Shown here piece by piece: positions 15,853-44,121 of a stretch of 55,027 bases of DNA. The DNA lies in contig CAZUCD010000001.1 of assembly GCA_964618855.1 (NCBI GenBank), forward strand, positions 1 through 55,027, read 5' to 3'. This DNA comes from an uncultured Candidatus Sumerlaeota bacterium (lineage in GTDB: Bacteria; Sumerlaeota; Sumerlaeia; SLMS01; JANRJK01). Every line of letters begins with the position of its first letter. The stretch's first letter is position 1. The translations under genes and the position numbers were made by a program. The notes beneath the pieces are model-generated. The model saw only the letters and a list, made by a program, of their open reading frames with translations, made no database searches and was not told the DNA's origin.

Positions 15853-16124
15853 GTGGGATACCTCGACTGAAGAAGGTTCGGCCTGGCGAAAATCCCCGCA
15901 GACCCCGGAACGAGTAGGGGAGCAGCCCACCCGGGCGCGCGGCAACGCCAAACCACGCAGCTTGCGCAGTCTGGATCCCCCCCGGGGCAGGCGGGACCAC
16001 AGCCCCGGTCGGACCAAGCCGGGATTCAACTTGCTCTCACGCTGAGGCCCAAAAACCCTTTATCTCCCGTTGTTCCACCGGGGAATCCACTTCCTCCCCG
16101 CCCAACGCCAGGAGTCCATCGACC

Positions 16125-28673: not shown

Positions 28674-28749
28674 CGCGGGACTTCTAGCCCGGGTCCCCCC
28701 CGACGGGCAAAAGGAATCCGGGAAGCTGGCGCACCCGGCACGCACGCGG

Positions 28750-29325
28750 CTAGCGCCGCCGCCTCCTGCGCGCCGCCATGGCGAGGAGGGCCTTGCGCGG
28801 GTCATCACAGGCTGCTTTCTCCGCATCGGCGGCGGCCCCCAGGCGCGCGCCGCCGCGCTCCTTGAACGCAGCGCAAAGGGCCACCGCCAGCGCGTCCGAC
28901 TCATGGTCGCTGCGGGGTTCGACCTTCAGGCCCAGGTGAACGCAGACGAGCCTGCGCAACTGGTCCTTGCCTGCTCGCCCGCTACCCGCCACGGCGAGCT
29001 TGATCTCGCGCGGCGCGAAGGACCGGATCTCGATCCCCGAGTTCGCCGCCGCGACGAGGGCCGCGCCGCGCCCGTGCGCCATCGCCACGGCGGAGCGCAC
29101 GTTCCGCGCGAAGAAGATGTCCTCGATCCCCAGGAGTGTCGGTCGGAACTCGGCGATGGCACCTGCCACGAGCTCATGGATGCGAATGAGCCGCGCGGGG
29201 AGCGGCTGGCCTGCCGACGTCACCGTGTGCCGCCACGCCAGCGCCCGCGGCCTGCCATCCCCGGCCACCTCGATCACTCCGATGCCCGTGCTTGCAAGTC
29301 CCGGGTCGATCCCGAGGACAACCAC
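28750..29325 (-). CDS. ruvC: Crossover junction endodeoxyribonuclease RuvC
   Basis: VVLGIDPGLASTGIGVI, LGIEDIFFARNVRSA and SDHESDALAVALC are the catalytic acidic blocks. The GTG start lies 2 nt after the upstream TAG stop. Confidence 0.93.
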   Translation of the reverse strand: MVVLGIDPGLASTGIGVIEVAGDGRPRALAWRHTVTSAGQPLPARLIRIHELVAGAIAEFRPTLLGIEDIFFARNVRSAVAMAHGRGAALVAAANSGIEIRSFAPREIKLAVAGSGRAGKDQLRRLVCVHLGLKVEPRSDHESDALAVALCAAFKERGGARLGAAADAEKAACDDPRKALLAMAARRRRRR

Positions 29326-29327
29326 CC

Positions 29328-31466
29328 CTACCGCATCCCCTTCGGCAGCGGCACACGCGAGTCCGACAGCGAGGAGTTCATCGAAACGCAGAGCGAGCCT
29401 GTGATGGCGCTACCTTCCTTGCCCGAGGAGGATTGCGCGAAGAAGTCCATGATGATGTAGGGGCCCTCCTCCCAAAGGTGGAACTCCCCCTGGCCATCGG
29501 GGCTGATCTCGCTGCGAAAGATGGTCTCGAGCGCCTCGCGTACCTGCGAGCGTCCGGTCATCTGGAACAGCGTGCGGCAGCGCACCTGAAGCTGGCAGCG
29601 CGGGTTGCCCGTGTCCTTCACCTGCATGTCCGTGAAGAGCCCCGACTGGTCGAGGAAGTGGTCGATGGCGCCCTGGAACCCGATGCGTTCCTCCGCCGAC
29701 GCCCCGCGCGTCCTGGCGAGGAGCTTGTCCAGGCCGAGCTGGAAGTTCTCCGCGGCGGTGTCGTCCTTGCGCACGATGGCCGTCTCAAGGAGCGCCTTGG
29801 CGAGGACCACGCGCGGTGCACCCACCGAGCGCTCGATCTTGATCTCCCCCTCCTGCCCGAGCCGTTCCGCCTCCCCCGGGTAGTCCTTCCACGCGAGCAG
29901 TCGGCTGTTCTGGTACGTGTTCGAGTTCGCCACGTAGATGCTCGTGGCGTCCGTGGAGATCGAGAGGCGCTTGAAGTGCTGTCCCTTGGCGCCCGTGATC
30001 GAGTCGGCGATGTGGACTCCCTCCTTCTTCAACTCAATGACCCGCTTGTAGCGAATCGGCAGGCGGCTCTTTCCCGTGATGAGCTTCTTCTGCAGCATCG
30101 AACGCACGAGGTTCGCGTTGAACCTGCCCACCGTGAGGAGGAGCAGCCGGAAGACGACCATCTTGAAGGGCGAGGGAAGCATCACCCGGCGCTCGTGGAA
30201 GGGTCCCTCGACCTCCAGCGTGTTGGTCGTGGGATCGAACTTGGCCGAGGACTCCTCGCGGTCCACGATGTGCGTCACGATCACCCGCCCATCGGCAAGT
30301 TCCGCGATCAGCCCCGTGTCGCTCGCGACGGGGCCCTCCTCCCCGGTGACCTTGAACACGCCCCCCTTTGACGCATTGCAGACAAAGTGGTAGCTGCGTT
30401 CCCGCACGACGAGGATGCGCGCCTCCGGGAACCACTTCACGTCCGGCGTGTCCGGCAGCTTCGCCGTTCCGGTGCGCTTGGGGTGGTAGTCCCGCCAAGC
30501 CTGCATCCAGTCGTACACGTAGTGCGCCGCCATGCGGTCGTCGTCGTTGAAGTGGCGTGACCGCCGCGGGAGCCCCTTGACCAGGAAGGAGTCGGCGACT
30601 TGCCCCGCCTGCGCGCAGTGCGGTGACATCAACTCGAAGCCATGCGGGTAGAAGTGAAACGTGTTCCGGCTGCCGTACTCTCCCGCGTACGAGCCGTCGG
30701 GATGCTGGAACCACCACGCGAACTCGCATGCCTGGACAAGGGGCGCCACCAGCGTCTCGTCCTTGGACTTCTGCCACAGTTTCGCAAGGAACGAGATCAG
30801 GCACGCGTGGTAGCCTGGGTCGGCTCCCTCGTACTCCTGGAACCAACCCTCGGGATTCCTCCACGACATGGTGAGGTCACGGAAACTGCGCGAGCCGTCC
30901 TCGAACCTTCGGTCCCCCGTCAGCAGAAAGGCGTTGTAGAGGGCGAGCGCGGCGAACGCCTGGTGGTTGGCGAGCTTGCCGGTCTCGTTGTGCCCGAGGA
31001 GCCACCCGGCCCGCTTGCTCAGGAAGGCCAGTCGGGATGGCTCGCGGTCCCCCAGCACCAGGCAGGTTTCGGTCATCGCATAGAGCGAAAACACGAGCGC
31101 CCCCATCGCACGCTCGTATGGAAAGTAATCGTCGCAGGTCCCATCGGAGTGCGCGGACTTCGCGGCGAAGTCCACCCCGGCGAGGGCTAGCTGCCTGACG
31201 CGGTCCTTCCCCAGATAGGGATTCTGGGGCAGTTCGAGCGTGGCCGCCAATGCCAGGGGGAGGACGAACTCCTGGTTCATCCCGCACGGGAAGTCCATCG
31301 TGCGGTAATGCCAGTAGCTGCGGTCAAAACAGCCATAGGTTGCGCTGTACGGGTTCGAGTCCACCATGCCGATGATGCGTGGCATTGCCCGGAGCGCCTC
31401 GAAGGCATACCAGTCCCGGTGCCCGGGTTCCGGCTGCGGGAAGGGCTGGTCGTGTGAGGAGGTCAT
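29328..31466 (-). CDS. Large hypothetical protein (possible alpha/alpha-toroid plus beta-sandwich, heparinase II/III-like; function unassigned)
   Basis: The composition is protein-like throughout, for example CFDRSYWHYRTMDFPCGMNQEF and WWFQHPDGSYAGEYGSRNT. ATG 31466 was verified but the start is uncertain, because the ORF opens at 31535. The fold guess comes from motif flavour only. Confidence 0.75.
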   Translation of the reverse strand: MTSSHDQPFPQPEPGHRDWYAFEALRAMPRIIGMVDSNPYSATYGCFDRSYWHYRTMDFPCGMNQEFVLPLALAATLELPQNPYLGKDRVRQLALAGVDFAAKSAHSDGTCDDYFPYERAMGALVFSLYAMTETCLVLGDREPSRLAFLSKRAGWLLGHNETGKLANHQAFAALALYNAFLLTGDRRFEDGSRSFRDLTMSWRNPEGWFQEYEGADPGYHACLISFLAKLWQKSKDETLVAPLVQACEFAWWFQHPDGSYAGEYGSRNTFHFYPHGFELMSPHCAQAGQVADSFLVKGLPRRSRHFNDDDRMAAHYVYDWMQAWRDYHPKRTGTAKLPDTPDVKWFPEARILVVRERSYHFVCNASKGGVFKVTGEEGPVASDTGLIAELADGRVIVTHIVDREESSAKFDPTTNTLEVEGPFHERRVMLPSPFKMVVFRLLLLTVGRFNANLVRSMLQKKLITGKSRLPIRYKRVIELKKEGVHIADSITGAKGQHFKRLSISTDATSIYVANSNTYQNSRLLAWKDYPGEAERLGQEGEIKIERSVGAPRVVLAKALLETAIVRKDDTAAENFQLGLDKLLARTRGASAEERIGFQGAIDHFLDQSGLFTDMQVKDTGNPRCQLQVRCRTLFQMTGRSQVREALETIFRSEISPDGQGEFHLWEEGPYIIMDFFAQSSSGKEGSAITGSLCVSMNSSLSDSRVPLPKGMR

Positions 31467-31756
31467 TCGGGCTGGAAGGGGAACGTTGGGGGTCTCAAGC
31501 GCCGAGGCTATCCCATCCCATGCGGGCGGTTGCAACTATGGAAACGCGGAATCCCGGCCCCGGGACCCATGGCGCGCCCGCGGCACCATCAGATTCCTGT
31601 CGCGACCGTGGGCGGAGCCTCACTAGATTTCCGCGGTTTGTGCGCGAGTCCGGGGAATTCTTCACAGTTTGCCGGACGCAGCCGGCGCAGGGTGCCCACC
31701 ACCCGCCCGGGCGTCGGCAGGCGCACCCCGACACACGGCGCACCACGAGGAGACAC

Positions 31757-32287
31757 ATGCAGGAAGCCCTGACGTTTCACCCAGCCGTCGCAGGATGCCT
31801 AGCCTCCGTGGAGCGCTGCCTCGCCTTCCTCGACCATCTCACGCAGGAACTTTACGTCAGGTCCACCGCGCACAACTCCCCCATAGGGAGCCACATGCGC
31901 CACTGCGTGGACCACTTCCTCTGCTTCTTCAAGGGCTGGAATGAAAGACTCGTCGACTATGACGCCCGCGACCGCGATCCGCGCCTGGAAACGGACCTGG
32001 CCCACTGCCGAGCCATCCTAGAGTCCCTCCATCTGCAAGTGGCCGACCTCGATGCCGCCGATCCGAGGACACCGATGAGCATCCAGACCGCACCCGCGCC
32101 CGGCATGGCGCCCGCCCCCGTGCCGTCCTGCCTCGAACGGGAACTGCTCTTCCTGTCCAGCCACACGATCCACCACATCGCGATCATGAAGCTGATCGCC
32201 GAACAGGTCGGCGTCACCATCCCGGAGGACATAGGCGTGGCCTACTCGACGGCATCCTACCGCGCCCGTCTGGCCCATCGCGGCTGA
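31757..32287 (+). CDS. DinB-family (DinB_2-like) metal-dependent protein
   Basis: 176 aa. It has His-rich four-helix-bundle signatures (GSHMRHCVDHF and SSHTIHHIAIM). A GAGGAG lies 7-8 nt before the ATG at 31757. Confidence 0.78.
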   Translation: MQEALTFHPAVAGCLASVERCLAFLDHLTQELYVRSTAHNSPIGSHMRHCVDHFLCFFKGWNERLVDYDARDRDPRLETDLAHCRAILESLHLQVADLDAADPRTPMSIQTAPAPGMAPAPVPSCLERELLFLSSHTIHHIAIMKLIAEQVGVTIPEDIGVAYSTASYRARLAHRG

Positions 32288-32319
32288 ACCGGGATCCGCG
32301 CGAGGCCGATAACAGCGTC

Positions 32320-33048
32320 GTGTGCACAGTCACCGTCTGGCATCGCCGGGATGGGCTCCTGCTGGCGATGAACCGGGACGAACGGCGGGACCGTGCCCCT
32401 GAGTCCCCCCCCGGGTTGCGTGGCGCCGGGGGGCATTGGATGGCACCCTCGGACGGCGAGGCCGGCGGCACCTGGTTCGCCGCAAGCGCGCGCGGATTCG
32501 CGGGCTGCATCCTGAATCGCTACCAGGACTCGACCGGCGGGGGAGCCCTGCCAGCAGCCAGCAGGGGCCTGATCCTCGCCCAACTCTGCGAGTCGCCGCT
32601 TTCGCCAGACCGCATGCTTGACGCCGCGGAATTCCTGGACCCGGCCGAGTTCGCCCCCTTCACCCTGGTACTTGCAGGAAAGGGCACGGCAGTTCGACTC
32701 GATTGGAACGGGAGGCGCATGATCCGGCGCCGCCTGGCCGGAGAGATCGCGATGGTCAGCTCCTCGTCGTGGCAGACGCGTCCGGTCCTGGCATGGCGGC
32801 GCCGCGCCTTCGATCGATGGTCGGGCGCGCCGGAGACCTCCGCACAAGGGATCCCCACCATCCACCTGCACGCCCCACCGGGGGATGAGCGGCGCGCCTT
32901 CCTCATGCAAAGGGAAGCCAGCGAGACGCGCTCCATAACGATGGCGGAGTTTCATTGGGCCCACGGAACCTGCACACTCAGGCATTGGCCTGTTGCGGGG
33001 GGATGCCTCCTCGGGGAATCTCCCCGTCGGATGATGCGCCTCGCATGA
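32320..33048 (+). CDS. NRDE family protein (TANGO2 homologue)
   Basis: The N-terminus is M-C-T (Cys2) and the eponymous LAMNRDERRDR motif is present, followed by GGTWFA. GTG start at 32320 was verified. Its stop overlaps the next gene's start (ATGA, 33045-33048). Confidence 0.85.
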   Translation: MCTVTVWHRRDGLLLAMNRDERRDRAPESPPGLRGAGGHWMAPSDGEAGGTWFAASARGFAGCILNRYQDSTGGGALPAASRGLILAQLCESPLSPDRMLDAAEFLDPAEFAPFTLVLAGKGTAVRLDWNGRRMIRRRLAGEIAMVSSSSWQTRPVLAWRRRAFDRWSGAPETSAQGIPTIHLHAPPGDERRAFLMQREASETRSITMAEFHWAHGTCTLRHWPVAGGCLLGESPRRMMRLA

Positions 33049-34700
33049 ACATGGACTTCGCCGTCACGGCGGCCTCGCTCGCGGAGGAGCCCCTCCTCCA
33101 GGGGCTCCTCGTTGCATTTGCGACGTTCATCCTTGAGGACCCCACCACCATCGCGTGCGGGTTCCTCGTCGTGGACGGGAAGATGGCCTACTGGACGGCA
33201 TACATCTCCCTGTCCCTCGGCATCGCCCTCGGGGACATGGGGCTGTACGCCCTCGGGAGGTTCTTCGCCCCCTGGGTTCGTTCGACGCGCCTTGTGCCGA
33301 AGGCTTCCTTCGAACGCGCCGAAGCGTGGTTTGGACGCAACCTGGTGCTGGCGGTGGTGTTGTCGCGCTTCGTGCCGGGCATGCGGCTGCCGACATACAC
33401 GGCGGCGGGGCTGCTGCGCGCCCATCCGCTCGCATTCCTCGGCGTCGCGCTGGGCGCATCGCTCGTGTGGACGTGGCTCCTGCTGTGGGGGGTGATGAAG
33501 CTCGGGGGGGAGCTCCTGCCGCGGCTTGGGCCCTTGAAGTGGGGCATCGCAGCATCCGTGGTCGTGGTGATCGCAGTCGTGCAGTGGGCGCTGGGCCGTC
33601 GGGTGCAGGCCGAACAGCCCGCCGAGCCGAGGCGCGAGGCCCCCATCGCGAGCTTCTTCGAGTTCTGGCCACCCTGGCTCTTCTACATCCCCGTCGTGCT
33701 GCACTACCTAGTGCTCGCCGTACGGTACCGCAGCCTGACCCTGCCCACGGCGTCGAACCCCCGCATTTACTCCGGTGGTCTCGTGCGCGAATCGAAGGGG
33801 CAGATTCTCTCCCTCGCGAACGACCGCGCCCGGCGCTGGATCGCGCCCTGGGTCGTGTGGCGTCGCCCCCCTGCGGATGTCACCGCGGAGGATGCGCTGT
33901 CCTCCGCGGAAGCGGCGCTCTCGGCGTACGGCCTCACCCTGCCCATCGTTGCGAAGCCCGACATGGGACAGCGCGGCGCCGGCGTCCGCCCCATACGCAC
34001 GCGCGCGGAGTTGGCCGCCTACATCGCGGAGTTTCCGCACGACACGGACATCATCCTCCAGCAGCTCGTCGAGTGGGGGAATGAAGCCGGCGTGCTGTTC
34101 ACCAGGATGCCGGGGGAAGACGCCGGCCGGATCGTCTCCATCACGCTCAAGGAGTTCCCATTCGTCACGGGCGACGGCACCAGCACGTTACGCGAGCTCA
34201 TCCTCGCGGACCCGCGCGCTCAGCTCATACAGGACGTGTACCTCGCGCGCCACCATGCCCGGCTCCAGAATGTGCTCCCGGCGGGGGAGAACTTCCCCCT
34301 CGTCTTTGCGGGCAACCATTGCCAGGGGACGATCTTCCTCGACGGGACCCACCTCGCAACGGAGGAGCTGCGGGCGCGGATGCAGGAAATCGCCGAGAAC
34401 ACCGAGGAACTGTACTTCGCGCGCTTCGACCTGCGGTTCCGCAACATGGAGTCCTTCCTCCGCGGCGAGGAGTTCCTGATCGTCGAGATCAACGGCGCAG
34501 GTGCGGAATCCACGCACATCTGGGATGCACGGATGACTCTTGGCAGGGCATATGCCGCGCTCTTCGAGCAATGGCGGACCCTGTTCGCGATCGGGGACCG
34601 CAACCGGGCCCGCGGGGCGCGCCCCATCGGGGCCCTCGCCATCCTGCGCGATTTCGCGCTTTATCTGCGGACGTCGAAGAACTACCCCTCGACGCTCTAG
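33045..34700 (+). CDS. Fusion protein: DedA/VTT-type membrane domain plus a C-terminal ATP-grasp ligase
   Basis: The N-terminal ~200 aa are DedA-like (FILEDPTTIACGFLV, LSRFVPGMRLPTYTAAG). One further TM segment follows. Then an ATP-grasp domain (LPIVAKPDMGQRGAGVRPI, ILQQLVEW, FLIVEINGAGAESTHIWD). Confidence 0.85.
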   Translation: MNMDFAVTAASLAEEPLLQGLLVAFATFILEDPTTIACGFLVVDGKMAYWTAYISLSLGIALGDMGLYALGRFFAPWVRSTRLVPKASFERAEAWFGRNLVLAVVLSRFVPGMRLPTYTAAGLLRAHPLAFLGVALGASLVWTWLLLWGVMKLGGELLPRLGPLKWGIAASVVVVIAVVQWALGRRVQAEQPAEPRREAPIASFFEFWPPWLFYIPVVLHYLVLAVRYRSLTLPTASNPRIYSGGLVRESKGQILSLANDRARRWIAPWVVWRRPPADVTAEDALSSAEAALSAYGLTLPIVAKPDMGQRGAGVRPIRTRAELAAYIAEFPHDTDIILQQLVEWGNEAGVLFTRMPGEDAGRIVSITLKEFPFVTGDGTSTLRELILADPRAQLIQDVYLARHHARLQNVLPAGENFPLVFAGNHCQGTIFLDGTHLATEELRARMQEIAENTEELYFARFDLRFRNMESFLRGEEFLIVEINGAGAESTHIWDARMTLGRAYAALFEQWRTLFAIGDRNRARGARPIGALAILRDFALYLRTSKNYPSTL

Positions 34701-34724
34701 GCAGCGGCGGACGATCCTCCCCCC

Positions 34725-35588
34725 ATGACCCTGAAATCCGGCGCGAACATCATCGGCGGACTTCGCCTGGGCGTCCTCTCGTCGGGCGATCAACTCATCC
34801 GTCCGGGCGGGGACGTGGACCTCCTCTCCGTGCCGAGTCTCCGCAAGGGCGGCTACGTCGCCGGGTTCGCGGTCTCGAAGGCGGCCCTCGAAGCGGCGCA
34901 GCGGCTCCGCTACGAAGTCTTCAACATCGAGCTGGGCGAGGGGCTGCCGGACTCCCACCTCACCGGCCTGGACCGCGACCGCTTCGACGCCCAAATGAGC
35001 CACCTCGTGATCTTCGAGGAGGAGTCGGGCCGCGCCGTCGGCACGTACCGCCTGCAGACCATGCAGCACGCACTCTCCCATCCCGAGGGTATCTACTCCG
35101 CGCAGGAGTACGACCTCGCGCCCCTCGGGGACAGGCTGGCGCACTCGGTCGAGTGCGGCCGCGCCTGCATCGCGCAAGGCCACCGCACCTTCACGACCGT
35201 CCTGATGCTGTGGACCGGCATCGGCGTCTTCATGAAGCACTTCCGCCAGCGGTACGTGTTCGGCTGCTGCTCCCTGACGACGACCGACCCGGATGACGGT
35301 TGGCGCGCGATGAAGACGCTGCGGGCGATGGGATCGCTCCGCACCGACCTGGTGCTCCCCGCGATGCCAAGCTTCACCTGCGGCCCGCGCGAGCGCGAGT
35401 TCGCCCCGGACCTCGGCCCGGCCCTACCCCTGCCAAAGCTCTTCAGCGCCTACATGCGCCTGGGCTGCAAGGTCGTCTCCGAGCCTGCCCTGGACCGCGA
35501 CTTCCAGACCGTCGACTTCCTAGTGTTCCTCGACTCCCTCGAGGTCAATCTCTCCTCGCTGCTCTCGATGGGCGTCTCGAAGGGCTGA
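34725..35588 (+). CDS. OlsB-like GNAT N-acyltransferase (Acetyltransf_5 / lyso-aminolipid synthase family)
   Basis: AQRLRYEVFNIELGEG...DRDRFDAQMSHLVIF...VGTYRLQT...YSAQEYDL...VECGRACI...GCCSL follows the ornithine-acyl-ACP N-acyltransferase family pattern. Confidence 0.87.
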   Translation: MTLKSGANIIGGLRLGVLSSGDQLIRPGGDVDLLSVPSLRKGGYVAGFAVSKAALEAAQRLRYEVFNIELGEGLPDSHLTGLDRDRFDAQMSHLVIFEEESGRAVGTYRLQTMQHALSHPEGIYSAQEYDLAPLGDRLAHSVECGRACIAQGHRTFTTVLMLWTGIGVFMKHFRQRYVFGCCSLTTTDPDDGWRAMKTLRAMGSLRTDLVLPAMPSFTCGPREREFAPDLGPALPLPKLFSAYMRLGCKVVSEPALDRDFQTVDFLVFLDSLEVNLSSLLSMGVSKG

Positions 35589-35598
35589 GGGGACGCCG

Positions 35599-36093
35599 AT
35601 GGCCGGCTGGTCGATCCGCGGGGCCCGCGTGGAGGACCTGCGCGCCATCAACGACATCTACAACCACGAAGTGCTCCACTCCATTGCCACGCTCGACCTG
35701 GACCCGATGTCGCCGGAGTCCCGGCGCGCCTGGTTCGCGCGGTTCGATCAGGAGAACCCGCTGTTCGTGGCGGAGCAGGACGGTGCAGTCGTGGGATACG
35801 CATACTACCACAACTTTCGCGAGCGTCCCGGCTACCGCATCACGCGCGAGTCCTCGGTCTATGTGGCGCGGACCCACCGGGGCATGGGCATCGCCCGGGC
35901 GCTGTACGCGGAGTTGCTTCGCAGGGCGCGAGCCGGTGGGATACACTCCATGATCGCTGTCATCGGGGGTTCCAACCCCGCAAGCGAGCGCCTGCACGCG
36001 GCCCTCGGGTTCGCACGCATCGGGGTACTCCGGGAGGCGGGGGAGAAGTTTGGCGCGCGCCACGATGTCCAGATCTGGCAGGCCTTGCTGTGA
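35599..36093 (+). CDS. GNAT acetyltransferase, phosphinothricin/amino-acid N-acetyltransferase (PAT/MnaT-like) type
   Basis: IRGARVEDLRAINDIYNHEV...ATLDLDP...WFARF...VVGYAYY...RGMGIARALY is the PAT subfamily pattern. Confidence 0.88.
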   Translation: MAGWSIRGARVEDLRAINDIYNHEVLHSIATLDLDPMSPESRRAWFARFDQENPLFVAEQDGAVVGYAYYHNFRERPGYRITRESSVYVARTHRGMGIARALYAELLRRARAGGIHSMIAVIGGSNPASERLHAALGFARIGVLREAGEKFGARHDVQIWQALL

Positions 36094-36983
36094 GCAGCGA
36101 CTCATCCACCCAGGGCGACGCGGCGCTCGCTCCGTCCACTCCGAGGGGAGCGCGCAGCTACCGCTCCCTCGCGATCCTGCGCCTCCTGCTCATCCTGGCG
36201 TCACTCGTCGTCTTCTTCCCCATCTTCCTCGTCCACAAGCTGCTGTGCCGGACGGAGGCTGCCCGATACCGCGCGGGCGCCGCCTGGACCCGGTTCTGGT
36301 TCCGCCTGATTGCGCGCCTGCTGGGATGGCGCATCCGCGCAAAGGGCGACCTGCCCCCGTCGTGCTTCGTCGCCCCCAACCACGTCGGCTACGGGGACAT
36401 CCTCGCCATGAGCGCGGCCACCGGTTGCTTCTTCGTCTCCAAGACCGAAGTGGTGAGCTGGCCCCTCATCGGTCGGCTCCTGCTGATGACAGAGCACATG
36501 ACGGTCTCCCGTTCGGTCGCCCGCGACCTGGCGCGCACGACCTCGCTCATCACGTCGCGGCTGCGGCATGGACACCGGGTGTGCGTCTTCCTGGAGGGCA
36601 CGACCACCGGCGGCGACCGCATCCTGCGCTTCATGACGCCCCTCGTGAAGCCCGCTGTGGAGGCCGGTGCGCCCATCGTGCCGACTTCCATCAGGTGGAC
36701 GTGCAGCGACCCGGACTTCCACTTGTCGGAGGACGCCGCCTACTGGACGCGCGAGCACACCTTCGGTCCCCATGCGCTTCGGATGTTCGGCATCCCCAGC
36801 CTTGAAGTCGAAATCACCTTCGACGAGCCGGTTGACCCGGCAAGCATGCCGAGGCGAGACCTAGCGCAGCACATCAGGCGGCGCATCGTTGAACTCTACC
36901 GCCCCCCGCTCGAGGAGGACGCTCCGGCTCCTGAGGCTTCATGGGTTGCACCGGGCCTCCGGGACAAGGAGAGGGACACATGA
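36090..36983 (+). CDS. PlsC-family lysolipid O-acyltransferase (OlsA-like)
   Basis: The HX4D box is NHVGYGD and the FPEGT-equivalent is FLEGTTT. The GTG start overlaps the previous stop (GTGA, 36090-36093). Confidence 0.87.
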   Translation: MSSDSSTQGDAALAPSTPRGARSYRSLAILRLLLILASLVVFFPIFLVHKLLCRTEAARYRAGAAWTRFWFRLIARLLGWRIRAKGDLPPSCFVAPNHVGYGDILAMSAATGCFFVSKTEVVSWPLIGRLLLMTEHMTVSRSVARDLARTTSLITSRLRHGHRVCVFLEGTTTGGDRILRFMTPLVKPAVEAGAPIVPTSIRWTCSDPDFHLSEDAAYWTREHTFGPHALRMFGIPSLEVEITFDEPVDPASMPRRDLAQHIRRRIVELYRPPLEEDAPAPEASWVAPGLRDKERDT

Positions 36984-37144
36984 GAAACATCCTGAGCCTC
37001 GTCTGGCTCGTCATCATCGTCTACACGATCATCGACATCCTGAAGAGCGGCGGCAGCACTGGCAAGAAGGCACTCTGGATCGTGCTCGTCCTCGTCTTTC
37101 CGTTCCTCGGCTCCATCGGCTGGTTCATTTTCGGCCGCAAGTAG
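36980..37144 (+). CDS. PLDc_N-type small membrane protein (54 aa)
   Basis: MRNILSLVWLVIIVYTIIDIL...KKALWIVLVLVFPFLGSIGWFIFGRK follows the PLD-nuclease N-terminal mini-protein pattern. Its ATG overlaps the PlsC stop (ATGA, 36980-36983). Confidence 0.72.
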   Translation: MRNILSLVWLVIIVYTIIDILKSGGSTGKKALWIVLVLVFPFLGSIGWFIFGRK

Positions 37145-37178
37145 TCTCGTCAACCCGTCCCCACCAAGGCCTCGCACC

Positions 37179-38660
37179 ATGCGCAAGCTCGCATCCTTCA
37201 AGGCCGCCCTCGTCGCGGCGGCCCTCGCCCTCTCAGCGGCAACCGCAAGTGCGGAATCCCTCAGGGACCGCCTTGTCGTGCACAAGCTCGCGAACGGGAT
37301 GACGGTCCTGATCTATCCGCGCGGCGACGCGCCCGTGTTCGCGGCGACCATGAGCATGGACGTCGCCGGCAGCGACGAGCTCTCAGGTGAGGGCGGGGTC
37401 GCCCACATGTTCGAGCACATGGCATTCAAGGGCTCGCACATCCTCGGCACGACGAACTACGAGGCCGAGAAGCCCCTCATGGAGGCGATGGACGCCGCCG
37501 CCGAGGAGGCGCGCGCCGAGATGTCCAAGACCGAACCCGACATGGCGAAGGTCGAGGCATTGCGCGAACGCATCCGCCAATTGCAGGAGGAGCAGGCGCA
37601 GTACATCGTCAAGGATGAGCTCGACCTCATCCTCCAGCGCAACGGCGCCTCGGGCGTCAACGCGAGCACCAGCTCCGACTTCACGAACTACTACACGGAA
37701 CTCCCCTCCAATCGGCTCGAGCTCTACTTCTGGCTCGAGGCCCAGCGCATGAGGTACCCCGTCATGCGCGAGTTCTACAGCGAGCGCGACGTCGTCGTGG
37801 AGGAGCGCCGCCAGCGCACCGACGACAGCCCGTTCGGCGCCCTCTACGAGGCCTTCCTGACGACGGCCTTCGCCGCGCATCCCTATGGACGCCCTGTCAT
37901 CGGATGGGCCAGCGAGATCACGACCGTCACACGGCCCATGGCGGAGGACTTCCGCATCAGGCACTACGGCCCCAAGGCCGCCGTGCTCGCGATCGTCGGC
38001 AAGGTCGACCCGCAGGAGGTAATCGCGCTCGCGGACAAGTACTTCGCGGACTGGGACGCACCCGGCGCCCCCTCGCGCGTCGTCACCAAGGAGCCCCCGC
38101 AGCGCGGCGAGCGCCGCGTGGCCGTCAAGTTCGACGCCGAACCGCAGCTCATGATCGGCTGGCAGAAGCCCGCCGGCCCCTCGCGCGACGACATGGCGCT
38201 CCAGATCTTCAGCATGCTCGCCACCGACAACACCACATCCCCCCTCTACAAGGACCTTGTCGTGGACCGGAAGATCGCCACGAACATCGGCTCCTACACC
38301 GGCCCCGGGGAGAAGTACGAGGGCCTATTCATCATCTCGGCGACACCACGCGCCCCCCACACCGTCGCGGAACTCGAGGCCGCCATCGACGAGTCGCTTG
38401 CCCGCGTGCTGGAGAACGGGTTCACGGACGAGGAACTGGAACGCGCCCGCCGCAGCATCGAAATGTACTACATCCGGACGAGACGCTCCAACTCCTCCTT
38501 CGCGACCACCCTGGCGGAGACTACCAACCTGCGCAAGAACCCCTACGCCTTCGAGGATGAAATGAAGGTGGCCCTCGCCATCACGCGCGACGACGTCATC
38601 GCAGCGGCGCGAAAGTACCTCACCAAGGACACCAGGACGGTGGCGTGGATTGAGAAGTAG
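37179..38660 (+). CDS. M16-family (pitrilysin/insulinase) zinc peptidase, secreted
   Basis: Signal peptide, plus the inverted zinc motif HxxEH in GVAHMFEHMAFKGS. Confidence 0.92.
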   Translation: MRKLASFKAALVAAALALSAATASAESLRDRLVVHKLANGMTVLIYPRGDAPVFAATMSMDVAGSDELSGEGGVAHMFEHMAFKGSHILGTTNYEAEKPLMEAMDAAAEEARAEMSKTEPDMAKVEALRERIRQLQEEQAQYIVKDELDLILQRNGASGVNASTSSDFTNYYTELPSNRLELYFWLEAQRMRYPVMREFYSERDVVVEERRQRTDDSPFGALYEAFLTTAFAAHPYGRPVIGWASEITTVTRPMAEDFRIRHYGPKAAVLAIVGKVDPQEVIALADKYFADWDAPGAPSRVVTKEPPQRGERRVAVKFDAEPQLMIGWQKPAGPSRDDMALQIFSMLATDNTTSPLYKDLVVDRKIATNIGSYTGPGEKYEGLFIISATPRAPHTVAELEAAIDESLARVLENGFTDEELERARRSIEMYYIRTRRSNSSFATTLAETTNLRKNPYAFEDEMKVALAITRDDVIAAARKYLTKDTRTVAWIEK

Positions 38661-38785
38661 GACCAGGGCTTGATTTCAACCACGTCGGGTATCTCGTAAG
38701 GGTTGAGGTCGCCTCCTCGGAAGGATGGCTTTGGGAGTCGTCGTCTCGCCGCATCCAAGCGCCGACGGCACCCCGAACCGGACTC

Positions 38786-39535
38786 GTGTCGAGCCTGTGC
38801 TTCGGGATTCGATCTGTGAGCCGCCGAGATGGTGTTTTCCTTTCACTCGCCGACCCCCGCATCATCACCGGCCTGAAGTCCCTCTGGTTTCCGCCTTCCA
38901 TGCCGGCGGTTCCTGGGCTTCGACACGCAGAGTGCATGAGCCCGATGACCCTCGGAGCCCCAATCCTGTCACCGGACCGGATGCAGTTGCGCCACTTGGT
39001 GATGTTTGCGGCCTGGGAAAGCGAGTACGCGATCGATGGCTTCCTGGCCACCAAGGGGCTCGGTCGCTCATTTGCTGACGGTTGGCACGTCCGGATGGAG
39101 TTCCTGCGCCGCTGGGGGCGTGTCAGAGAGTTCGATGGGCTAGAAGAACCGGCCGGGGAGCAGGACCCCGAGGCCCCCGTGGTGGCGGTGACGCTGGCTC
39201 GTTTGAAGCTGCTCCAAGTTCCGCGGTTCATTCGCTGGGGGAAGACGGTCGAGGAACTCGTGAGGGACCATCCCGGCAAGACGCTGGCAACTGCGGCAAT
39301 CCGGCTTCCCAGAACCGTCTGCACCTTTTCGATGTGGTCCTCGCAACTGGTGATGCTCTCCATGGTGCGAGGAGACAACGCCGTGCCCGGTTCCGACCGC
39401 CATGCGGCGGCGATGAAGGAGCGTCAGCGACTGGACTTCCACTCGGAGCTTACAACCCTCCGGTTCAGGCCGCTGGCCGAGTACGGAAACCGGGACCTTC
39501 CGGAGAGAATCACCAATATGTCGGACGCGAAGTGA
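38786..39535 (+). CDS. CrtA-like protein (family usually auto-annotated as 'spheroidene monooxygenase'; real function unknown)
   Basis: From memory of the family pattern: AAWESE..IDGFL, GWHVRMEFLR, PVVAVTLARLKL, CTFSMWSS...M, HAAAMK, F.ELTTLRFRP. The start is GTG. The codon usage is visibly less GC3-biased than in neighbouring genes. Confidence 0.68.
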   Translation: MSSLCFGIRSVSRRDGVFLSLADPRIITGLKSLWFPPSMPAVPGLRHAECMSPMTLGAPILSPDRMQLRHLVMFAAWESEYAIDGFLATKGLGRSFADGWHVRMEFLRRWGRVREFDGLEEPAGEQDPEAPVVAVTLARLKLLQVPRFIRWGKTVEELVRDHPGKTLATAAIRLPRTVCTFSMWSSQLVMLSMVRGDNAVPGSDRHAAAMKERQRLDFHSELTTLRFRPLAEYGNRDLPERITNMSDAK

Positions 39536-39724
39536 AACGCTCCCGCCGAGGTAGGGGGAGCGACGCGCTTCCGCTTCCGGCGATTCAGACAGCTTTGTCC
39601 GGACGCGATCCGCGGCGCAAAGTCGCTCTGTCGGGCAGTTTGGTCTGACGATCCATGATAGTGGTCCGGCGGTCCCCTTCTCCTCTCCTGGCGGAAAGGG
39701 GATCGGGTGCGTATCCAGTCAGGT

Positions 39725-42013
39725 TCAGCGCGCGTTCGTTCCGCCGACCTCCGACGTGCCATGCACTGGTTCCGATCCTTCGTTTGTCCCCCCCATCCTC
39801 ACCCCTCCCGCGTGGTTCGGCACTTGGAAGCAGTGCGCTTGATACTCGATCTCCGTCCACTGCTGGGGCTGGAGGGACAAACCCGGCATGAGCGGCCGAT
39901 TCACAGGGCGGAACCGAATCCCGACGCGAAGTTTGCTCTTCCCGCGGGTCAGCTCCAGCGGCAGCAGAAACTCATCCTCAACAAACCGTCGGTTCGATGT
40001 CTGGAGGACAGGGTCGGGTGGCGAAAGCTCCGTCGCCGGCCAGGTTCCGTAACCGAGAGTTGACCCCGCCGTGTACCAGAAGCCCGCCGAGGTCCAGCCG
40101 GGGCCGGGGGGAAGGCCCACAACCCCCGGATGGTCCGCCACGAAGACCTCCCCGCGCTGGTTCGGGTACTGGTAGTCCAGCGTCCGCCTTAGCATCACGC
40201 CCTGGTTCCCGGGGTCGATGCCCAGCGTGAAAGCCGATCCGGTCCCCGTGCGCCGCGCCGTCTCGGCGTGCGCCGGGTAAACCTCGACGCCCTGGACAGT
40301 GTCGGGCCCCCAGTCGAACCGCGACACGATCGTGTAGGGTTGGGTGGCCGAACTTATCTGGTATTGGTGCGCCGCCTCGCTTGCCGGGTTCCCGACGTCC
40401 AGCGTGTCCGTCCGCACGAGCGACGGCTGCGGCACCCCGTACCAGTAGGTGACCGTCTCGTAGGCGCCGGGCTGCATGTTGTCCACCCCGTGCTCGAAGT
40501 GGAGGACGGCGCGATCCCCGAACGGCATCACATCCGCGAGCAGGAAGCGGTAGGCGGACTGTATGAGGTCCTGCGGCCCGCTGGCCGTCCACGGAAACTC
40601 GCAGCCGACGGGATGCCCCGCGAGGGGAAGCGTCACGCGCTCCCTCCACCAGCCGTCCCCGCCCCCTGCCCACTCCTCGGTTCCGGTGCCCTGCACCTGC
40701 GGGGTGCGCGCCCCGTCGAAGTAGAACCTCGGGTCCCCTTCGGTGGGCTCGTAGAGCCCGTCCTTCGCAAACGTGAAGGTTGTGCCCGCGATGTGGCCCG
40801 ACCAGTGGTCGTGTCCCTCGACCCCTCGCGTGTCCAGGAAGACGACATGCTCGCGCGGAACGGTTTCGGGATGATCCCGGTGCGTGGCGTGGAACAAACC
40901 CGCATGCCTCGGGTTCATGCCGAGGGGTCCCTGCCTGATCGACCATTGGACGCCCGGAATGGCTTCACTCCCGGGGTTCACCAGTTCGACCAGGGCCCGC
41001 CGATGAAACGGCATGGGGAAGTAGCATGACAGGTGGACGCGTCCGCCAGCGTACCTGACCGAGACGGGCAGCGCCTTCACCAGCCACTCGCGACCATCGT
41101 CATTGTAGATCGTCCCCACTCCGAAGAACAGGTCGATGGGTGCGTCCACGGACGGCTGCCGCGCGCCGTCCCACGTGATTCGGATGCGTGCCCGCCCCAG
41201 TCGTTGCGCATCGGCCTCCGGCACCGAGAGGTTGATCGCGCGGATCATGGACGGCCCCGAGCCAAGACTGGCCAACAGGTTCCGACCCGGTGCGAGGCTG
41301 AGTGCACCGCCCGTGCCGGTGATGCCCGCCGCGGCCGCCTCCGGAGTGCCAACCGACGGAACCAGGTCGCTTCCCGCGCTCGAAAGCAGGTCGAGAACCC
41401 GTTGGTCCGGTGGGGATGGCTGCCACGACTCGAGCGGCCTCGAGAGAGGGACGCCCGGCGCAAACCGCGTGTAGATGTAGTAACCCGTACCATAGAAGGT
41501 CCGCTCGTACTCCATCCGGAAGGAGCTGGCGAACGGCATCGGCACCCAAGTCAGGTTCGCCCCGCGCGTCACCGGCCAGGGAAGTGCAAGGGGCTGTGCA
41601 AAGATGCTCGCGGGCAGGAACACCGAGCCGTAGTCGGGCTCGTTCGGATTCGCCGTGCTGGTGTCCTCCACGACGTGGTCGACGCCATCGACCACGAAGT
41701 GCCACGGGCTGCCATGCCAGCGGTTGAACCGCGCGAACCACAGGATGCCGGGACCCTCCACGTCGAGCGTGACGTGCCTGTCCGGGGCGAGCATGTAGAG
41801 GAAGTGGCTAGCGTCGGAGCCCTCGTTATGGCCGGCGCGGTCCCACGTGCTTCGCAGCCACGTCCGCGCGCCGATCCTGAGCTGGGGCCACTTGTCCCAG
41901 TGGATGTAGGCGTCCTCCCCGATGGGGATGGTCGGGAGGTCCCCGGCGGGGGAGACTGCCGGCAGCCATGCGGCCATCAACGCGGCAAGCCCGGCCAGGA
42001 AGCGGGTTCTCAT
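39725..42013 (-). CDS. DUF2961 (GH172-like) domain protein, secreted
   Basis: Signal MRTRFLAGLAALMAAWLPAVSPA. DUF2961-style blocks follow (VEGPGILWFARF, FYGTGYYIYTRF, and a second beta-jelly-roll region). ATG at 42013 was verified. Confidence 0.82.
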   Translation of the reverse strand: MRTRFLAGLAALMAAWLPAVSPAGDLPTIPIGEDAYIHWDKWPQLRIGARTWLRSTWDRAGHNEGSDASHFLYMLAPDRHVTLDVEGPGILWFARFNRWHGSPWHFVVDGVDHVVEDTSTANPNEPDYGSVFLPASIFAQPLALPWPVTRGANLTWVPMPFASSFRMEYERTFYGTGYYIYTRFAPGVPLSRPLESWQPSPPDQRVLDLLSSAGSDLVPSVGTPEAAAAGITGTGGALSLAPGRNLLASLGSGPSMIRAINLSVPEADAQRLGRARIRITWDGARQPSVDAPIDLFFGVGTIYNDDGREWLVKALPVSVRYAGGRVHLSCYFPMPFHRRALVELVNPGSEAIPGVQWSIRQGPLGMNPRHAGLFHATHRDHPETVPREHVVFLDTRGVEGHDHWSGHIAGTTFTFAKDGLYEPTEGDPRFYFDGARTPQVQGTGTEEWAGGGDGWWRERVTLPLAGHPVGCEFPWTASGPQDLIQSAYRFLLADVMPFGDRAVLHFEHGVDNMQPGAYETVTYWYGVPQPSLVRTDTLDVGNPASEAAHQYQISSATQPYTIVSRFDWGPDTVQGVEVYPAHAETARRTGTGSAFTLGIDPGNQGVMLRRTLDYQYPNQRGEVFVADHPGVVGLPPGPGWTSAGFWYTAGSTLGYGTWPATELSPPDPVLQTSNRRFVEDEFLLPLELTRGKSKLRVGIRFRPVNRPLMPGLSLQPQQWTEIEYQAHCFQVPNHAGGVRMGGTNEGSEPVHGTSEVGGTNAR

Positions 42014-42304
42014 GGAGTGGAGACGATGCACACCAATAGCGCTGCGTCCAGTCCGACCCCCGTGGCCATCAAGTTCGCGCACTTCCCGGACCCTCCCGCA
42101 CGCTCATGCCGGTCATGAGGCCGAAACTTACATTCTGCGGTTCGAACCGGCGAGTGTTGCCACGCATCCCGGGGATTGCCGGTTTGGGGGCGCACCCAAC
42201 CCTGCATTGCGCGGGGCTTGCGGCCCGGCCAGCGCCAACCTAGCGTGGTCCCGTCACTTCGAGTTCAGGCAAACCCAGTCCGTCCCCCGGGGAGCAAGAG
42301 CGCC

Positions 42305-44041: not shown

Positions 44042-44121
44042 CTTCCCGGCGCCCCCCGCCGCGCGAGCGGCTGGGGGCGCCCCCTCTCCCCAGATTTCCG
44101 ATCAACAGGGTCCCGCATCAC

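Follow-up and report, generated by a model that had tools for sequence, protein, structure and literature searches.

An OlsB-family N-acyltransferase and a PlsC-family O-acyltransferase together provide the two-step route to ornithine lipids and related N-acyl-amino-acid lipids; OlsB makes lyso-ornithine lipid out of ornithine and 3-hydroxyacyl-ACP. In MprF, an aminoacyl-phosphatidylglycerol synthase is fused to a flippase, and an aminoacyl-phosphatidylglycerol hydrolase is found in its neighborhood. The transfer of taurine to ornithine lipid that yields cerilipin in Gluconobacter cerinus is ATP-dependent and has no known gene, and the Ser-Gly flavolipin is made with a glycine lipid as the intermediate (PMC12971839). 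To make cerilipin, Ser-Gly flavolipin, or the Orn-Ser-Gly lipids, a completed aminolipid must be amidated on its head-group carboxylate at the expense of ATP, which is the reaction type of ATP-grasp enzymes; the cerilipin activity is known biochemically, no sequence is assigned to the enzymes for any of these lipids, and the likeness drawn to the locus described here is one of reaction type. A 2026 review does not list DinB, TANGO2, or DedA::ATP-grasp proteins among the enzymes of ornithine-lipid synthesis and modification (PMC12971839), and our literature search found no paper linking these families.

Gene Content of the Locus

The window, by which we mean the whole 55,027-nt stretch of DNA that was analyzed, comes from an uncultured Candidatus Sumerlaeota bacterium (assembly GCA_964618855.1, contig CAZUCD010000001.1). 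As read from the sequence, seven genes, all on the + strand, span positions 31757–37144 and encode, in order, a DinB_2-family protein, a TANGO2/NRDE-family protein, a DedA(VTT)::ATP-grasp fusion, an OlsB-like N-acyltransferase, a PAT/YncA/ArsN1-type GNAT, a PlsC/OlsA-like O-acyltransferase, and a small PLDc_N membrane protein. Start and stop codons overlap at three junctions (ATGA at 33045–33048, GTGA at 36090–36093, and ATGA at 36980–36983) and the remaining gaps are 32, 24, and 10 nt, exactly as first described. GC3 values of 0.78–0.92 across all seven genes are evidence of coding, and Shine-Dalgarno-like GAGGAG and AAGGAG motifs lie 5′ of the DinB and PLDc_N genes. The family assignments were borne out by profile HMM: all seven products pass the Pfam gathering scores, with the exception of the ATP-grasp half of the fusion, which has no Pfam match and was identified by a profile search against the PDB and by a structure model.

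The initial annotation had treated these genes as a single tightly packed run of seven. The coordinates and families hold, but the same-strand run continues past 37144 into an M16-family peptidase gene (37179..38660, + strand; Peptidase_M16_C, E 4.5e-33), and comparison with other loci shows only five of the seven genes to be conserved together. The peptidase gene, 34 nt past the PLDc_N gene, was never near the fusion gene in the other loci compared and probably lies outside the system.

The GNAT, by family an amino-acid N-acetyltransferase (164 aa, 35599..36093, + strand; Acetyltransf_1, E 2.5e-18), is encoded between the OlsB and PlsC genes. It has clear family-level similarity to phosphinothricin acetyltransferases in the PDB (PAT/YncA structures, E ~5e-29), misses the equivalog cut-offs of the ArsN1b model (133 bits versus 210) and the PAT model (123 versus 300), and fits the host in composition (GC3 0.87). 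The PLDc_N protein (54 aa, 36980..37144, + strand) matches PF13396 with 45.5 bits against a cut-off of 23.3. Neither gene occurs in any of the 91 other non-redundant loci, relatives at 66–68% identity included, and no PLDc_N gene follows PlsC in L011, L091, or L092; their absence even from such close relatives marks them as lineage-specific additions. The suggestion that the GNAT caps a free amine with an acetyl group thus finds no place in the conserved system, and such capping would be at most a lineage-specific extra.

The Acyltransferase Pair

The OlsB/OlsA-type core proposed at the outset is present. The OlsB-like protein (287 aa, 34725..35588, + strand), the candidate for the initial step in making an acyloxyacyl aminolipid, matches Acetyltransf_5 (PF13444, E 1e-25) over its whole catalytic region and aligns to NF052554 at model positions 10–245 of 256. 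Its best NCBIfam matches are OlsB models, at 113 bits (cut-off 350) and 106 bits (cut-off 320); because these models are alphaproteobacterial, the low score mainly reflects distance, and what it says of amino-acid specificity is uncertain. The PlsC/OlsA-like protein (297 aa, 36090..36983, + strand; Acyltransferase PF01553, E 9e-19) is likewise best matched by OlsA, with 105 bits against a cut-off of 300, and its motifs N97-H98-x4-D103 (NHx4D) and F167-x-E169-G170-T171 (FxEGT) are at least 95% conserved. The window therefore shares with the OlsB/OlsA ornithine-lipid pathway of the Sinorhizobium meliloti type an Acetyltransf_5 and PlsC-family pair in one operon with intact acyltransferase motifs. 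It differs in that the scores reach a third of the equivalog cut-offs, which leaves ornithine specificity putative, and in that the pair is embedded among DinB, TANGO2, and DedA::ATP-grasp genes. The identity of the base lipid is uncertain, since the OlsB and OlsA proteins and the OlsF proteins linked to this system elsewhere all score below the ornithine equivalog cut-offs.

The DedA::ATP-grasp Fusion

The fusion protein (551 aa, 33045..34700, + strand) consists of a DedA domain (approximately residues 1–190), an extra transmembrane helix (residues 210–227), and a predicted ATP-grasp ligase (approximately residues 230–551), in agreement with the architecture originally assigned. The VTT domain (PF09335) scores 41.8 bits against a gathering score of 33.9 and is present in all homologues. 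A profile of 29 homologues matches the ATP-grasp domains of CphA2 and CphA1 in the PDB (E 2e-5 to 9e-5, best 1.8e-5), and the AF2 model (pLDDT 85) has cyanophycin synthetases, GshF, and Ddl as its best Foldseek matches (E 4e-9 to 1e-6, probability 1.00). Residues K304, R460, D462, E481, and N483 are invariant in the 29 sequences, and K304 (VxKP), RxD, and ExN are predicted to be the conserved ATP/Mg residues by their putative correspondence to those of Ddl. The cyanophycin synthetase models give the window fusion only 32 bits against a cut-off of about 850; two relatives alone (P0298 and P0379) show sub-threshold ATP-grasp_3 and above-threshold RimK matches. Judged by profile and predicted structure, the C-terminal half is a genuine ligase of the ATP-grasp type, with the G-domains of cyanophycin synthetases as its nearest relatives.

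The best profile and structural matches of the fusion (CphA1/CphA2 G-domain, GshF, Ddl, and RimK) have the same ATP-grasp core, including its K, RxD, and ExN residues. The fusion is only 13–24% identical to these enzymes, however, and its N-terminal substrate domain is cut to about 70 residues after the transmembrane helix. Unlike cyanophycin synthetase, it is without M or N domains and has a DedA membrane domain attached. In locus L097 the VTT and ATP-grasp parts are split into a gene pair, which indicates that both parts work together.

In the DedA domain, residues E31, D32, R108, and R114 are invariant in the 29 sequences, forming an acidic pair and an R-x5-R pair in common with the UptA-type DedA undecaprenyl-phosphate (UndP) flippases (COG0586). 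This charged-residue pattern was tied to UndP flippases by Todor et al. (PMC10127716), and its presence here counts against an aminolipid substrate; the UptA equivalog models give the fusion 24 and 22 bits, far below their cut-offs of 250 and 300. The DedA fusions described by Todor et al. involve rhodanese, PAP2, and pyridine-nucleotide oxidoreductase, and an ATP-grasp fusion is not among them (PMC10127716). By analogy, the locus may follow the same logic as MprF, with a head-group enzyme fused to a lipid-translocating domain and a hydrolase encoded nearby. There is no homology between the two, and MprF uses aminoacyl-tRNA chemistry on phosphatidylglycerol, whereas the fusion would use ATP-grasp chemistry.

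The TANGO2 and DinB Proteins

The TANGO2/NRDE-family protein (242 aa, 32320..33048, + strand, GTG start) matches PF05742 with 42.3 bits against 22.6. Its product begins M-C-T and carries the motif N18-R19-D20-E21, with C2, R19, and D20 at least 95% conserved among 37 homologues. Its stop codon overlaps the start of the fusion gene (ATGA at 33045), and in P0357 a TANGO2 domain is fused to the ligase protein itself. The structure of human TANGO2 suggests a Cys-Ntn hydrolase acting on fatty-acyl derivatives (PMC13044924), whereas bacterial HtpA, which shares the TANGO2 Pfam domain, Cys2, and the NRDE motif with the window protein, has been assigned a role in haem trafficking (PMC10470608). The retention of Cys2 and the NRDE motif is consistent with the Ntn-type hydrolase of the initial annotation, and the position of the gene beside aminolipid genes and a ligase::DedA fusion fits the Cys-Ntn/fatty-acyl reading (PMC13044924). 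The window protein is probably a Cys-Ntn amidohydrolase or acyltransferase.

The DinB_2-family protein (176 aa, 31757..32287, + strand), encoded by the first gene of the conserved block, matches PF12867 with 30.1 bits against a gathering score of 24.8. Conservation among 64 homologues reaches at least 95% at H46/H49, H136, H139/H140, and a YDxRxR..E motif. The His triad of the family (H…HxxxH) is present as H46, H136, and H140, and the protein is a putative metalloenzyme.

Conservation and Linkage to Aminolipid Synthases

We compared the window with 91 other non-redundant loci, which fall into groups with 47–68% (27 loci) and 37–42% (64 loci) identity; the fusion family as a whole is large (2759 cluster representatives), and every carrier in the comparison is uncultured or metagenome-assembled. 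A five-gene block of DinB_2, TANGO2/NRDE, DedA(VTT)::ATP-grasp, OlsB-like, and OlsA/PlsC-like genes occurs in identical order in L001, L004, L011, L012, L013, and L092, the fusion protein being 48–68% identical to that of the window. The order is found again in Hydrogenedentota contigs and metagenome contigs and partly in Sumerlaeota, and its recurrence at such identities indicates that the block is more than chance. The actual conserved unit is the trio of DinB, TANGO2, and fusion genes, which the initial annotation overlooked: where at least 1.5 kb of flank is available, the three stay together in 34 of 43 loci, and where at least 1 kb is available, the DinB gene is found no more than 2 kb from the fusion gene in 8/12 and 36/41 loci. 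The expected co-conservation with aminolipid genes was found for DinB, TANGO2, and the fusion and failed for the GNAT and PLDc_N genes; the aminolipid cluster is joined to the trio not only in the window but also in eight or more named lineages.

At least five arrangements place the fusion family beside an aminolipid synthase. Downstream of the fusion gene, 14 loci have OlsB and PlsC (gaps of 37–153 nt) and 7 have an OlsF-type synthase (gaps of 3–149 nt); the order OlsF-DoxX-fusion is seen in L032, L066, and L070, and a convergent OlsF lies near the fusion gene in L025, L042, and L053. Longer fusions occur as OlsB-PlsC-Abhydrolase::VTT::ATP-grasp (L099 and L100) and as DinB followed by TANGO2::Abhydrolase::VTT::ATP-grasp facing OlsF (L095). 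Known systems close to these arrangements are the bifunctional aminolipid synthase OlsF and the GlsB/GlsA pair. The OlsF-type proteins adjoining the trio elsewhere are full length (NF052615, 384–418 bits over the whole model) and under the 620-bit cut-off; in the window, OlsB and OlsA are instead encoded by two individual genes.

A synthase lies within 3 kb in 20 of the 27 non-redundant loci of the 47–68% group and in 9 of the 64 of the 37–42% group (Verrucomicrobiota and others). Where the latter have at least 3 kb of flank, the count is 5 of 22, with two more within 10 kb. Most loci of the 37–42% group have no synthase in the sequence at hand, and none is adjacent in Planctomycetota L010 or in Sumerlaeota L005 and L094, both of which count against an aminolipid role. 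The trio also occurs without a neighboring synthase, often near DoxX, YHS, Msr, and peroxiredoxin genes, and the commoner neighbors in the 37–42% group are DoxX, YHS, DUF1223, MsrAB, and AhpC/redoxin.

Discussion

The best explanation, to which we give a little short of an even chance, is a module that tailors the head group of an aminolipid and exports the lipid, with a membrane-anchored carboxylate-amine ligase at its center. This explanation draws on the observed gene content, catalytic motifs, ATP-grasp fold, fusions, and recurrent linkage to aminolipid synthases. The OlsB-like and OlsA/PlsC-like proteins would make an acyloxyacyl amino-acid lipid of the ornithine-lipid type at the cytoplasmic face of the inner membrane, and the membrane-anchored DedA::ATP-grasp ligase would form an ATP-driven amide bond on its head group. 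For the substrate and ligation site that we infer, the simplest route would convert the free α-carboxylate of the aminolipid to an acyl-phosphate, to which an amine or amino acid is joined. The DedA domain may bind the lipid or carry substrate or product across the leaflets; the TANGO2-family Cys-Ntn enzyme could act on an acyl or aminoacyl group in amide or thioester linkage, for editing, reversal of ligation, or acyl supply, and the DinB metalloenzyme may carry out an additional reaction on the head group. The GNAT and PLDc_N proteins, as lineage additions, would stand outside the conserved machine.

The main rival, which we consider unlikely, is an envelope redox-stress module in which DinB, TANGO2, and DedA::ATP-grasp, often with DoxX, act on a substrate other than an aminolipid (a polyprenyl-phosphate-linked compound, a phospholipid head group, or a low-molecular-weight thiol conjugate), and adjacency to OlsBA or OlsF arises only because both are stress-induced membrane functions. 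DoxX lies directly 5′ of DinB in 26 of the 41 evaluable loci of the 37–42% group; AhpC/redoxin, MsrAB, DUF1223, YHS, and DoxX genes are upstream in Verrucomicrobiae L093, and Geobacter L008 has YHS, MsrB, CCP_MauG, DsbD, and redoxin genes. Thiol S-transferases are known among enzymes of the DinB fold, GshF ranks with the best Foldseek matches of the fusion, and the E/D and R-x5-R residues of the DedA domain and its weak UptA matches also speak for this module. However, the genes adjoin aminolipid synthases of two architectures, on either strand and in five or more gene orders, which is far beyond chance or loose co-regulation. DoxX itself adjoins OlsF in seven loci, tying a redox-looking partner to the synthase as well, and the neighborhoods show no further recurrent gene of lipid synthesis or of the polyprenyl pathway. 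A plain ornithine-lipid operon, in which OlsB and OlsA alone count and the remaining five genes are accidental neighbors, accords with the lack of conservation of the GNAT, PLDc_N, and M16 genes with the cluster; it is highly improbable, as the co-conservation of the trio, its association with aminolipid synthases across phyla, and the domain fusions that connect them already contradict it for three of the five extra genes.

Two further schemes keep the aminolipid and change the order or direction of the chemistry. The head group could be built first, with the ATP-grasp protein making a dipeptide or modified amino acid that TANGO2 and DinB process before the OlsB-like enzyme N-acylates it. ATP-grasp L-amino-acid ligases and Ddl, both among the matches of the fusion, yield free dipeptides; the sub-cut-off OlsB and OlsF partners allow a different acyl acceptor, and a toolkit of ligase, DinB, and Cys-Ntn enzyme might by analogy resemble the logic of ergothioneine biosynthesis. 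Yet a ligase for soluble substrates has no obvious need of a DedA domain and extra transmembrane helix, which are kept in almost all of the 2759 representatives, and the flavolipin intermediate is a lipidated glycine (PMC12971839); we regard this order as improbable. Slightly less probable still is a cycle of salvage or remodeling rather than a new head group, in which a TANGO2 amidase and an α/β-hydrolase esterase dismantle aminolipids supplied by the DedA domain and the ATP-grasp protein re-ligates or re-activates the released fatty acid or amino acid. The ligase is indeed always accompanied by a hydrolase (TANGO2, an Abhydrolase_1 domain, or both), and fatty-acyl derivatives are the proposed substrates of TANGO2, which binds acyl-CoA (PMC13044924), but we found no precedent for an ATP-grasp enzyme activating long-chain fatty acids, and the closest relatives of the fusion by Foldseek ligate amino acids or peptides.

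Under the tailoring and export reading, amidation through an acyl-phosphate would be the chemistry needed for cerilipin and for the Ser-Gly and Orn-Ser-Gly peptide lipids. It is a tentative, rather unlikely proposal that DedA::ATP-grasp proteins are the missing class of lipid-carboxylate:amine ligase, equipped with its own translocator and extending known (taurine-ornithine, Ser-Gly, Orn-Ser-Gly) or unseen head groups; the carriers found belong to phyla other than Bacteroidota and that of Gluconobacter. On this proposal TANGO2-family proteins, as the obligatory partner of the ligase, would be Cys-Ntn amidases or acyltransferases with N-acyl amino-acid lipids as their substrates, and the human disease protein TANGO2 would gain a concrete substrate class.

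Organization of the Gene Run

Inspection of the raw sequence and of its ORF list verified the seven consecutive plus-strand genes described in the initial annotation, and the start/stop overlaps (ATGA at 33045, GTGA at 36090, and ATGA at 36980) and the gaps of 32, 24, and 10 nt agree with the sequence. In profile-HMM searches, all seven products match the expected Pfam families above gathering score: DinB_2 (31757–32287), TANGO2 (32320–33048), VTT_dom in a 551-aa DedA::ATP-grasp protein, hereafter the fusion (33045–34700), Acetyltransf_5 (OlsB-like, 34725–35588), Acetyltransf_1 and others (GNAT, 35599–36093), Acyltransferase (PlsC-like, 36090–36983), and PLDc_N (36980–37144). Third-position GC is 0.78–0.92 in all seven genes, resembling the rest of the window (66.5% GC), and GAGGAG and AAGGAG motifs lie 5′ of two of the seven starts. 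An M16 peptidase gene (37179–38660, plus strand) follows 34 nt after 37144 as an eighth gene in the same orientation, and a divergent gene upstream (29328–31535, minus strand) encodes a 735-aa protein without a Pfam or NCBIfam match. A consensus scan of 31300–39800 detected neither a sigma-70 promoter nor a convincing terminator; the terminator-like matches fall within genes and were judged uninformative. An Rfam search of the whole window returned zero RNA families.

Elsewhere in the window, the minus strand encodes a 609-aa protein (27075–28904) with a PAD_porph domain (agmatine or peptidyl-arginine deiminase family) at residues 169–487 and an N-terminal region of ~170 residues without domain assignment, as well as a 785-aa protein (39725–42082) with a DUF2961 domain (E 7e-42). 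In two long ORFs, known domains are confined to the C-terminal part: an 807-aa ORF (13606–16029, minus strand; GreA at 653–799) and a 799-aa ORF (42976–45375, plus strand; RibB and RibA from residue 390). The extended N-terminal regions of both may be genuine, or they may have arisen from ORF calling in high-GC DNA.

The Fusion Joins a DedA Domain to an ATP-Grasp Ligase

Pfam covers only the first ~150 residues of the fusion protein, and searches of the remaining half against Pfam and NCBIfam gave no family-level assignment. When an alignment of 29 full-length fusion homologues (mean column identity 61%) was used as a profile against the PDB, the ATP-grasp modules of the cyanophycin synthetases CphA2 and CphA1 were matched with E values of 2e-5 to 9e-5. 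An AlphaFold2 model (pLDDT 85) consists of a helical DedA domain, a further transmembrane helix at residues 210–227, and an α/β domain, for which Foldseek returned CphA1/CphA2, GshF, and D-Ala-D-Ala ligases at probability 1.00. The nearest structural relatives of the ligase half are the G-domains of cyanophycin synthetases, which activate the C-terminal carboxylate of a peptide and add an amino acid.

In the ATP-grasp half, the invariant residues K304 (in VAKPD), R460-x-D462, and E481-x-N483 would form the ATP/Mg site expected of a functional ligase; in the DedA domain, the invariant E31-D32 and R108-x5-R114 would be the charges in the re-entrant loops of such a transporter. The fusion is an active-looking ATP-grasp ligase with obligatory coupling to a DedA membrane domain.

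One search gave more than 1000 full-length homologues at E ≤ 1e-5 and a second gave more than 3400 at E ≤ 1e-20, with the 8000 best candidates scored in each. With the ligase half as the sole query, an exhaustive HMMER search yielded 2759 cluster representatives at E ≤ 1e-3, 1064 of them at E ≤ 1e-30. Among the source names are Hydrogenedentota, Sumerlaeota, Planctomycetota, Desulfobulbaceae, Geobacter, Methylomirabilis, Poribacteria, and Verrucomicrobiota, to which GTDB contigs add Thermodesulfobacteriota and Thermoanaerobaculia; a search for a cultured carrier among the cluster members found only MAG or "sp." names. Existing annotations of the homologues read "DedA family" or "VTT domain-containing" and nothing more; the fusion is annotated merely as a DedA/VTT protein because its ligase half escapes Pfam.

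The DedA fusion of ~520–590 aa is the majority architecture. Other versions are a protein of ~360–390 aa with a transmembrane helix and the ligase, accompanied by a VTT gene of its own (190 aa) whose codons overlap with it (L097/L098), and Abhydrolase_1::VTT::ATP-grasp proteins of 830–935 aa. In the split version at L097:2295–3985, the stop codon of the 190-aa VTT gene overlaps the start of a 373-aa TM-helix/ATP-grasp gene. The 879-aa Abhydrolase_1::VTT::ATP-grasp protein P0298 (L099:7001–9640) belongs to an OlsB-PlsC-fusion operon without DinB or TANGO2 genes, and the 1121-aa protein P0357 (L095:1790–5155) has the architecture TANGO2::Abhydrolase_1::VTT::ATP-grasp.

Partner Proteins

The TANGO2 product begins Met-Cys and contains N18-R19-D20-E21; across 37 homologues, conservation of C2, R19, and D20 is 95% or higher. 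DinB retains its His triad (H46, H136, and H140) and the YDxRxR..E motif, and PlsC retains NHx4D and FxEGT. PDB searches with the single DinB and TANGO2 sequences gave no significant match. The top NCBIfam models are OlsB for the OlsB-like protein (113 bits vs a cut-off of 350) and OlsA for the PlsC-like protein (105 bits vs 300). The pair is OlsBA-like; neither score reaches the equivalog cut-off, and the amino acid it takes may be ornithine or another.

Among acetyltransferases, the GNAT falls in the phosphinothricin/arsinothricin/YncA group (ArsN1b, 133 bits vs 210) and matches PAT structures in the PDB at E about 5e-29. It is translationally coupled to PlsC and is therefore probably coexpressed with the cluster in the window. 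A recent foreign acquisition is rejected, given its native composition.

Conservation of the Gene Neighborhood

In all, 100 loci were fetched, of which 94 were scored by phmmer with the window proteins, DoxX, and OlsF as queries (91 after de-duplication). Six-frame all-against-all ORF clustering around the fusion gene suffered heavy shadow-ORF contamination from high-GC DNA; the usable clusters, without overlap to known genes, were DoxX, DUF1223, ECF sigma factor, MIP, GMC oxidoreductase, FMN reductase, and glyoxalase.

Of the loci with 1 kb or more of flanking sequence on each side, 11 of 12 and 37 of 41 have DinB or TANGO2 no more than 2 kb from the fusion gene. The order is DinB-TANGO2-fusion where the fusion is 47–68% identical to the window protein and (DoxX)-DinB-fusion-TANGO2 where it is 37–42% identical. 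An aminolipid synthase lies within 3 kb of the fusion in 20 of 27 non-redundant loci of the former group and in 9 of 64 of the latter, many contigs being too short for a verdict. OlsB(+PlsC) is immediately downstream in 14 loci and an OlsF-type bifunctional synthase in 7, the linked OlsF-type proteins scoring 384–418 bits across the whole NF052615 model. Further arrangements are OlsF-DoxX-fusion (L032, L066, and L070), convergent DoxX-OlsF at 2 kb distance (L025, L042, and L053), OlsB+PlsC upstream (L052 and L067), OlsB-PlsC-Abhydrolase::VTT::ATP-grasp (L099/L100), DinB followed by TANGO2::Abhydrolase::VTT::ATP-grasp facing OlsF (L095), and, in Geobacter, DinB-TANGO2-DoxX-OlsF-CCP-YHS-fusion. 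A synthase gene occurs in one or two copies per several-Mb genome, and chance adjacency should therefore be well below 1% (a rough estimate rather than a computed control). The fusion is recurrently linked to aminolipid synthases of two architectures, the module contains a DinB metalloenzyme, and the ligase has an obligatory hydrolase-type partner, be it TANGO2 with Cys2, an α/β-hydrolase, or both.

The suggested test of neighborhood conservation was positive for DinB, TANGO2, and the fusion with the synthases and negative for GNAT and PLDc_N; neither these two nor the M16 and upstream 735-aa genes occur near the fusion gene in other loci. In the nearest relatives, L092 (68%) and L011 = L091 (66%), OlsB is followed directly by PlsC and then by unrelated genes. 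Despite its coupling to PlsC, the GNAT is a lineage-specific extra, and acetylation as a conserved tailoring step is rejected.

DoxX is the commonest extra neighbor of DinB, TANGO2, and the fusion (36 of 90 loci); tblastn found none in the window. It is directly beside the OlsF-type gene in L008, L025, L032, L042, L053, L066 (9492–9974), and L070, often between this gene and the fusion gene. At L095:7436–8209, a gene of the TMEM164 family (PF14808), acyltransferases in animals, adjoins the OlsF-type synthase.

Proposed Function

The target of the ligase would be the aminolipid. In the simplest reaction, the free head-group carboxylate would be activated and an amide then formed with an amine or amino acid. 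Head-group carboxylate amidation is a known activity to which no gene is assigned: the Orn-Ser-Gly lipid exists, and glycine lipid is the intermediate of the Ser-Gly flavolipin (PMC12971839). The ornithine-lipid modifications in this 2026 review are only hydroxylations, N-methylation, and taurine transfer. TANGO2 might act as an amidase, in editing, or in acyl transfer, in keeping with a 2026 crystal-structure study of human TANGO2 that proposed a Cys-Ntn hydrolase with fatty-acyl derivatives as substrates (PMC13044924). The layout of a ligase joined to a translocator, with a hydrolase gene next to it, resembles MprF and its aminoacyl-PG hydrolases by analogy only. The initial interpretation is supported in part: the ATP-grasp ligase is upheld by the profile and AlphaFold2/Foldseek matches and the DedA domain by VTT_dom, and the idea of an Ntn-type hydrolase fits the conserved C2 and NRDE motif; acetyl capping was not borne out, as the GNAT gene is missing from other loci.

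It is possible that DinB, TANGO2, and the fusion serve a redox or envelope-stress function on a substrate other than an aminolipid, given their redox-gene neighbors and a charge pattern in the fusion's DedA domain that Todor et al. tied to UndP flippases (PMC10127716). In the Verrucomicrobiota-type group, the three genes lie among DoxX, YHS, DUF1223, MsrAB, and peroxiredoxin genes, and the Geobacter locus is rich in redox genes. Three observations argue against this as the full explanation: the arrangements with aminolipid synthases are many and independent, DoxX itself is beside OlsF in seven loci, and no other lipid or polyprenyl gene recurs in the neighborhoods. The aminolipid and stress functions would be compatible if the cell used the modified aminolipid as a stress-response lipid. 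Loci L093:326–9977 (Verrucomicrobiae) and L008:5299–13422 (Geobacter), in which the three genes sit amid AhpC/redoxin, MsrA/MsrB, DUF1223, YHS, DsbD, and cytochrome c peroxidase genes, present a recurrent oxidative-stress context.

Implications

The OlsBA/OlsF aminolipid locus is known; what is new is an undescribed, widely conserved accessory module. Literature searches found no paper joining TANGO2 with OlsB, DedA with ornithine lipid, or ATP-grasp with DedA, VTT, or NRDE, and a search for DoxX with aminolipid gave no DoxX paper among the top results. To our knowledge, the enzymes that install head groups of peptide or taurine type have been sought for decades without success, and the fusion family offers a specific candidate that can be tested. 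A 2023 survey of DedA subfamilies lists fusions with rhodanese, PAP2, and pyridine-nucleotide oxidoreductase only (PMC10127716); a DedA lipid translocator joined to a catalytic domain could reveal the cargo of a DedA protein.

Many unassigned aminolipids are present in environmental lipidomes from groups that carry the module, which is widespread among uncultured bacteria (Hydrogenedentota, Sumerlaeota, Verrucomicrobiota, Planctomycetota, Thermodesulfobacteriota, Geobacter, Methylomirabilis, Poribacteria, and Thermoanaerobaculia). Aminolipid producers make up roughly half of sequenced bacteria (PMC12971839). The module also gives a TANGO2 homologue from bacteria a defined setting in lipid metabolism, and a gene fusion strengthens this tie, which bears on the open dispute over whether TANGO2 is a haem chaperone or an acyl-lipid enzyme.
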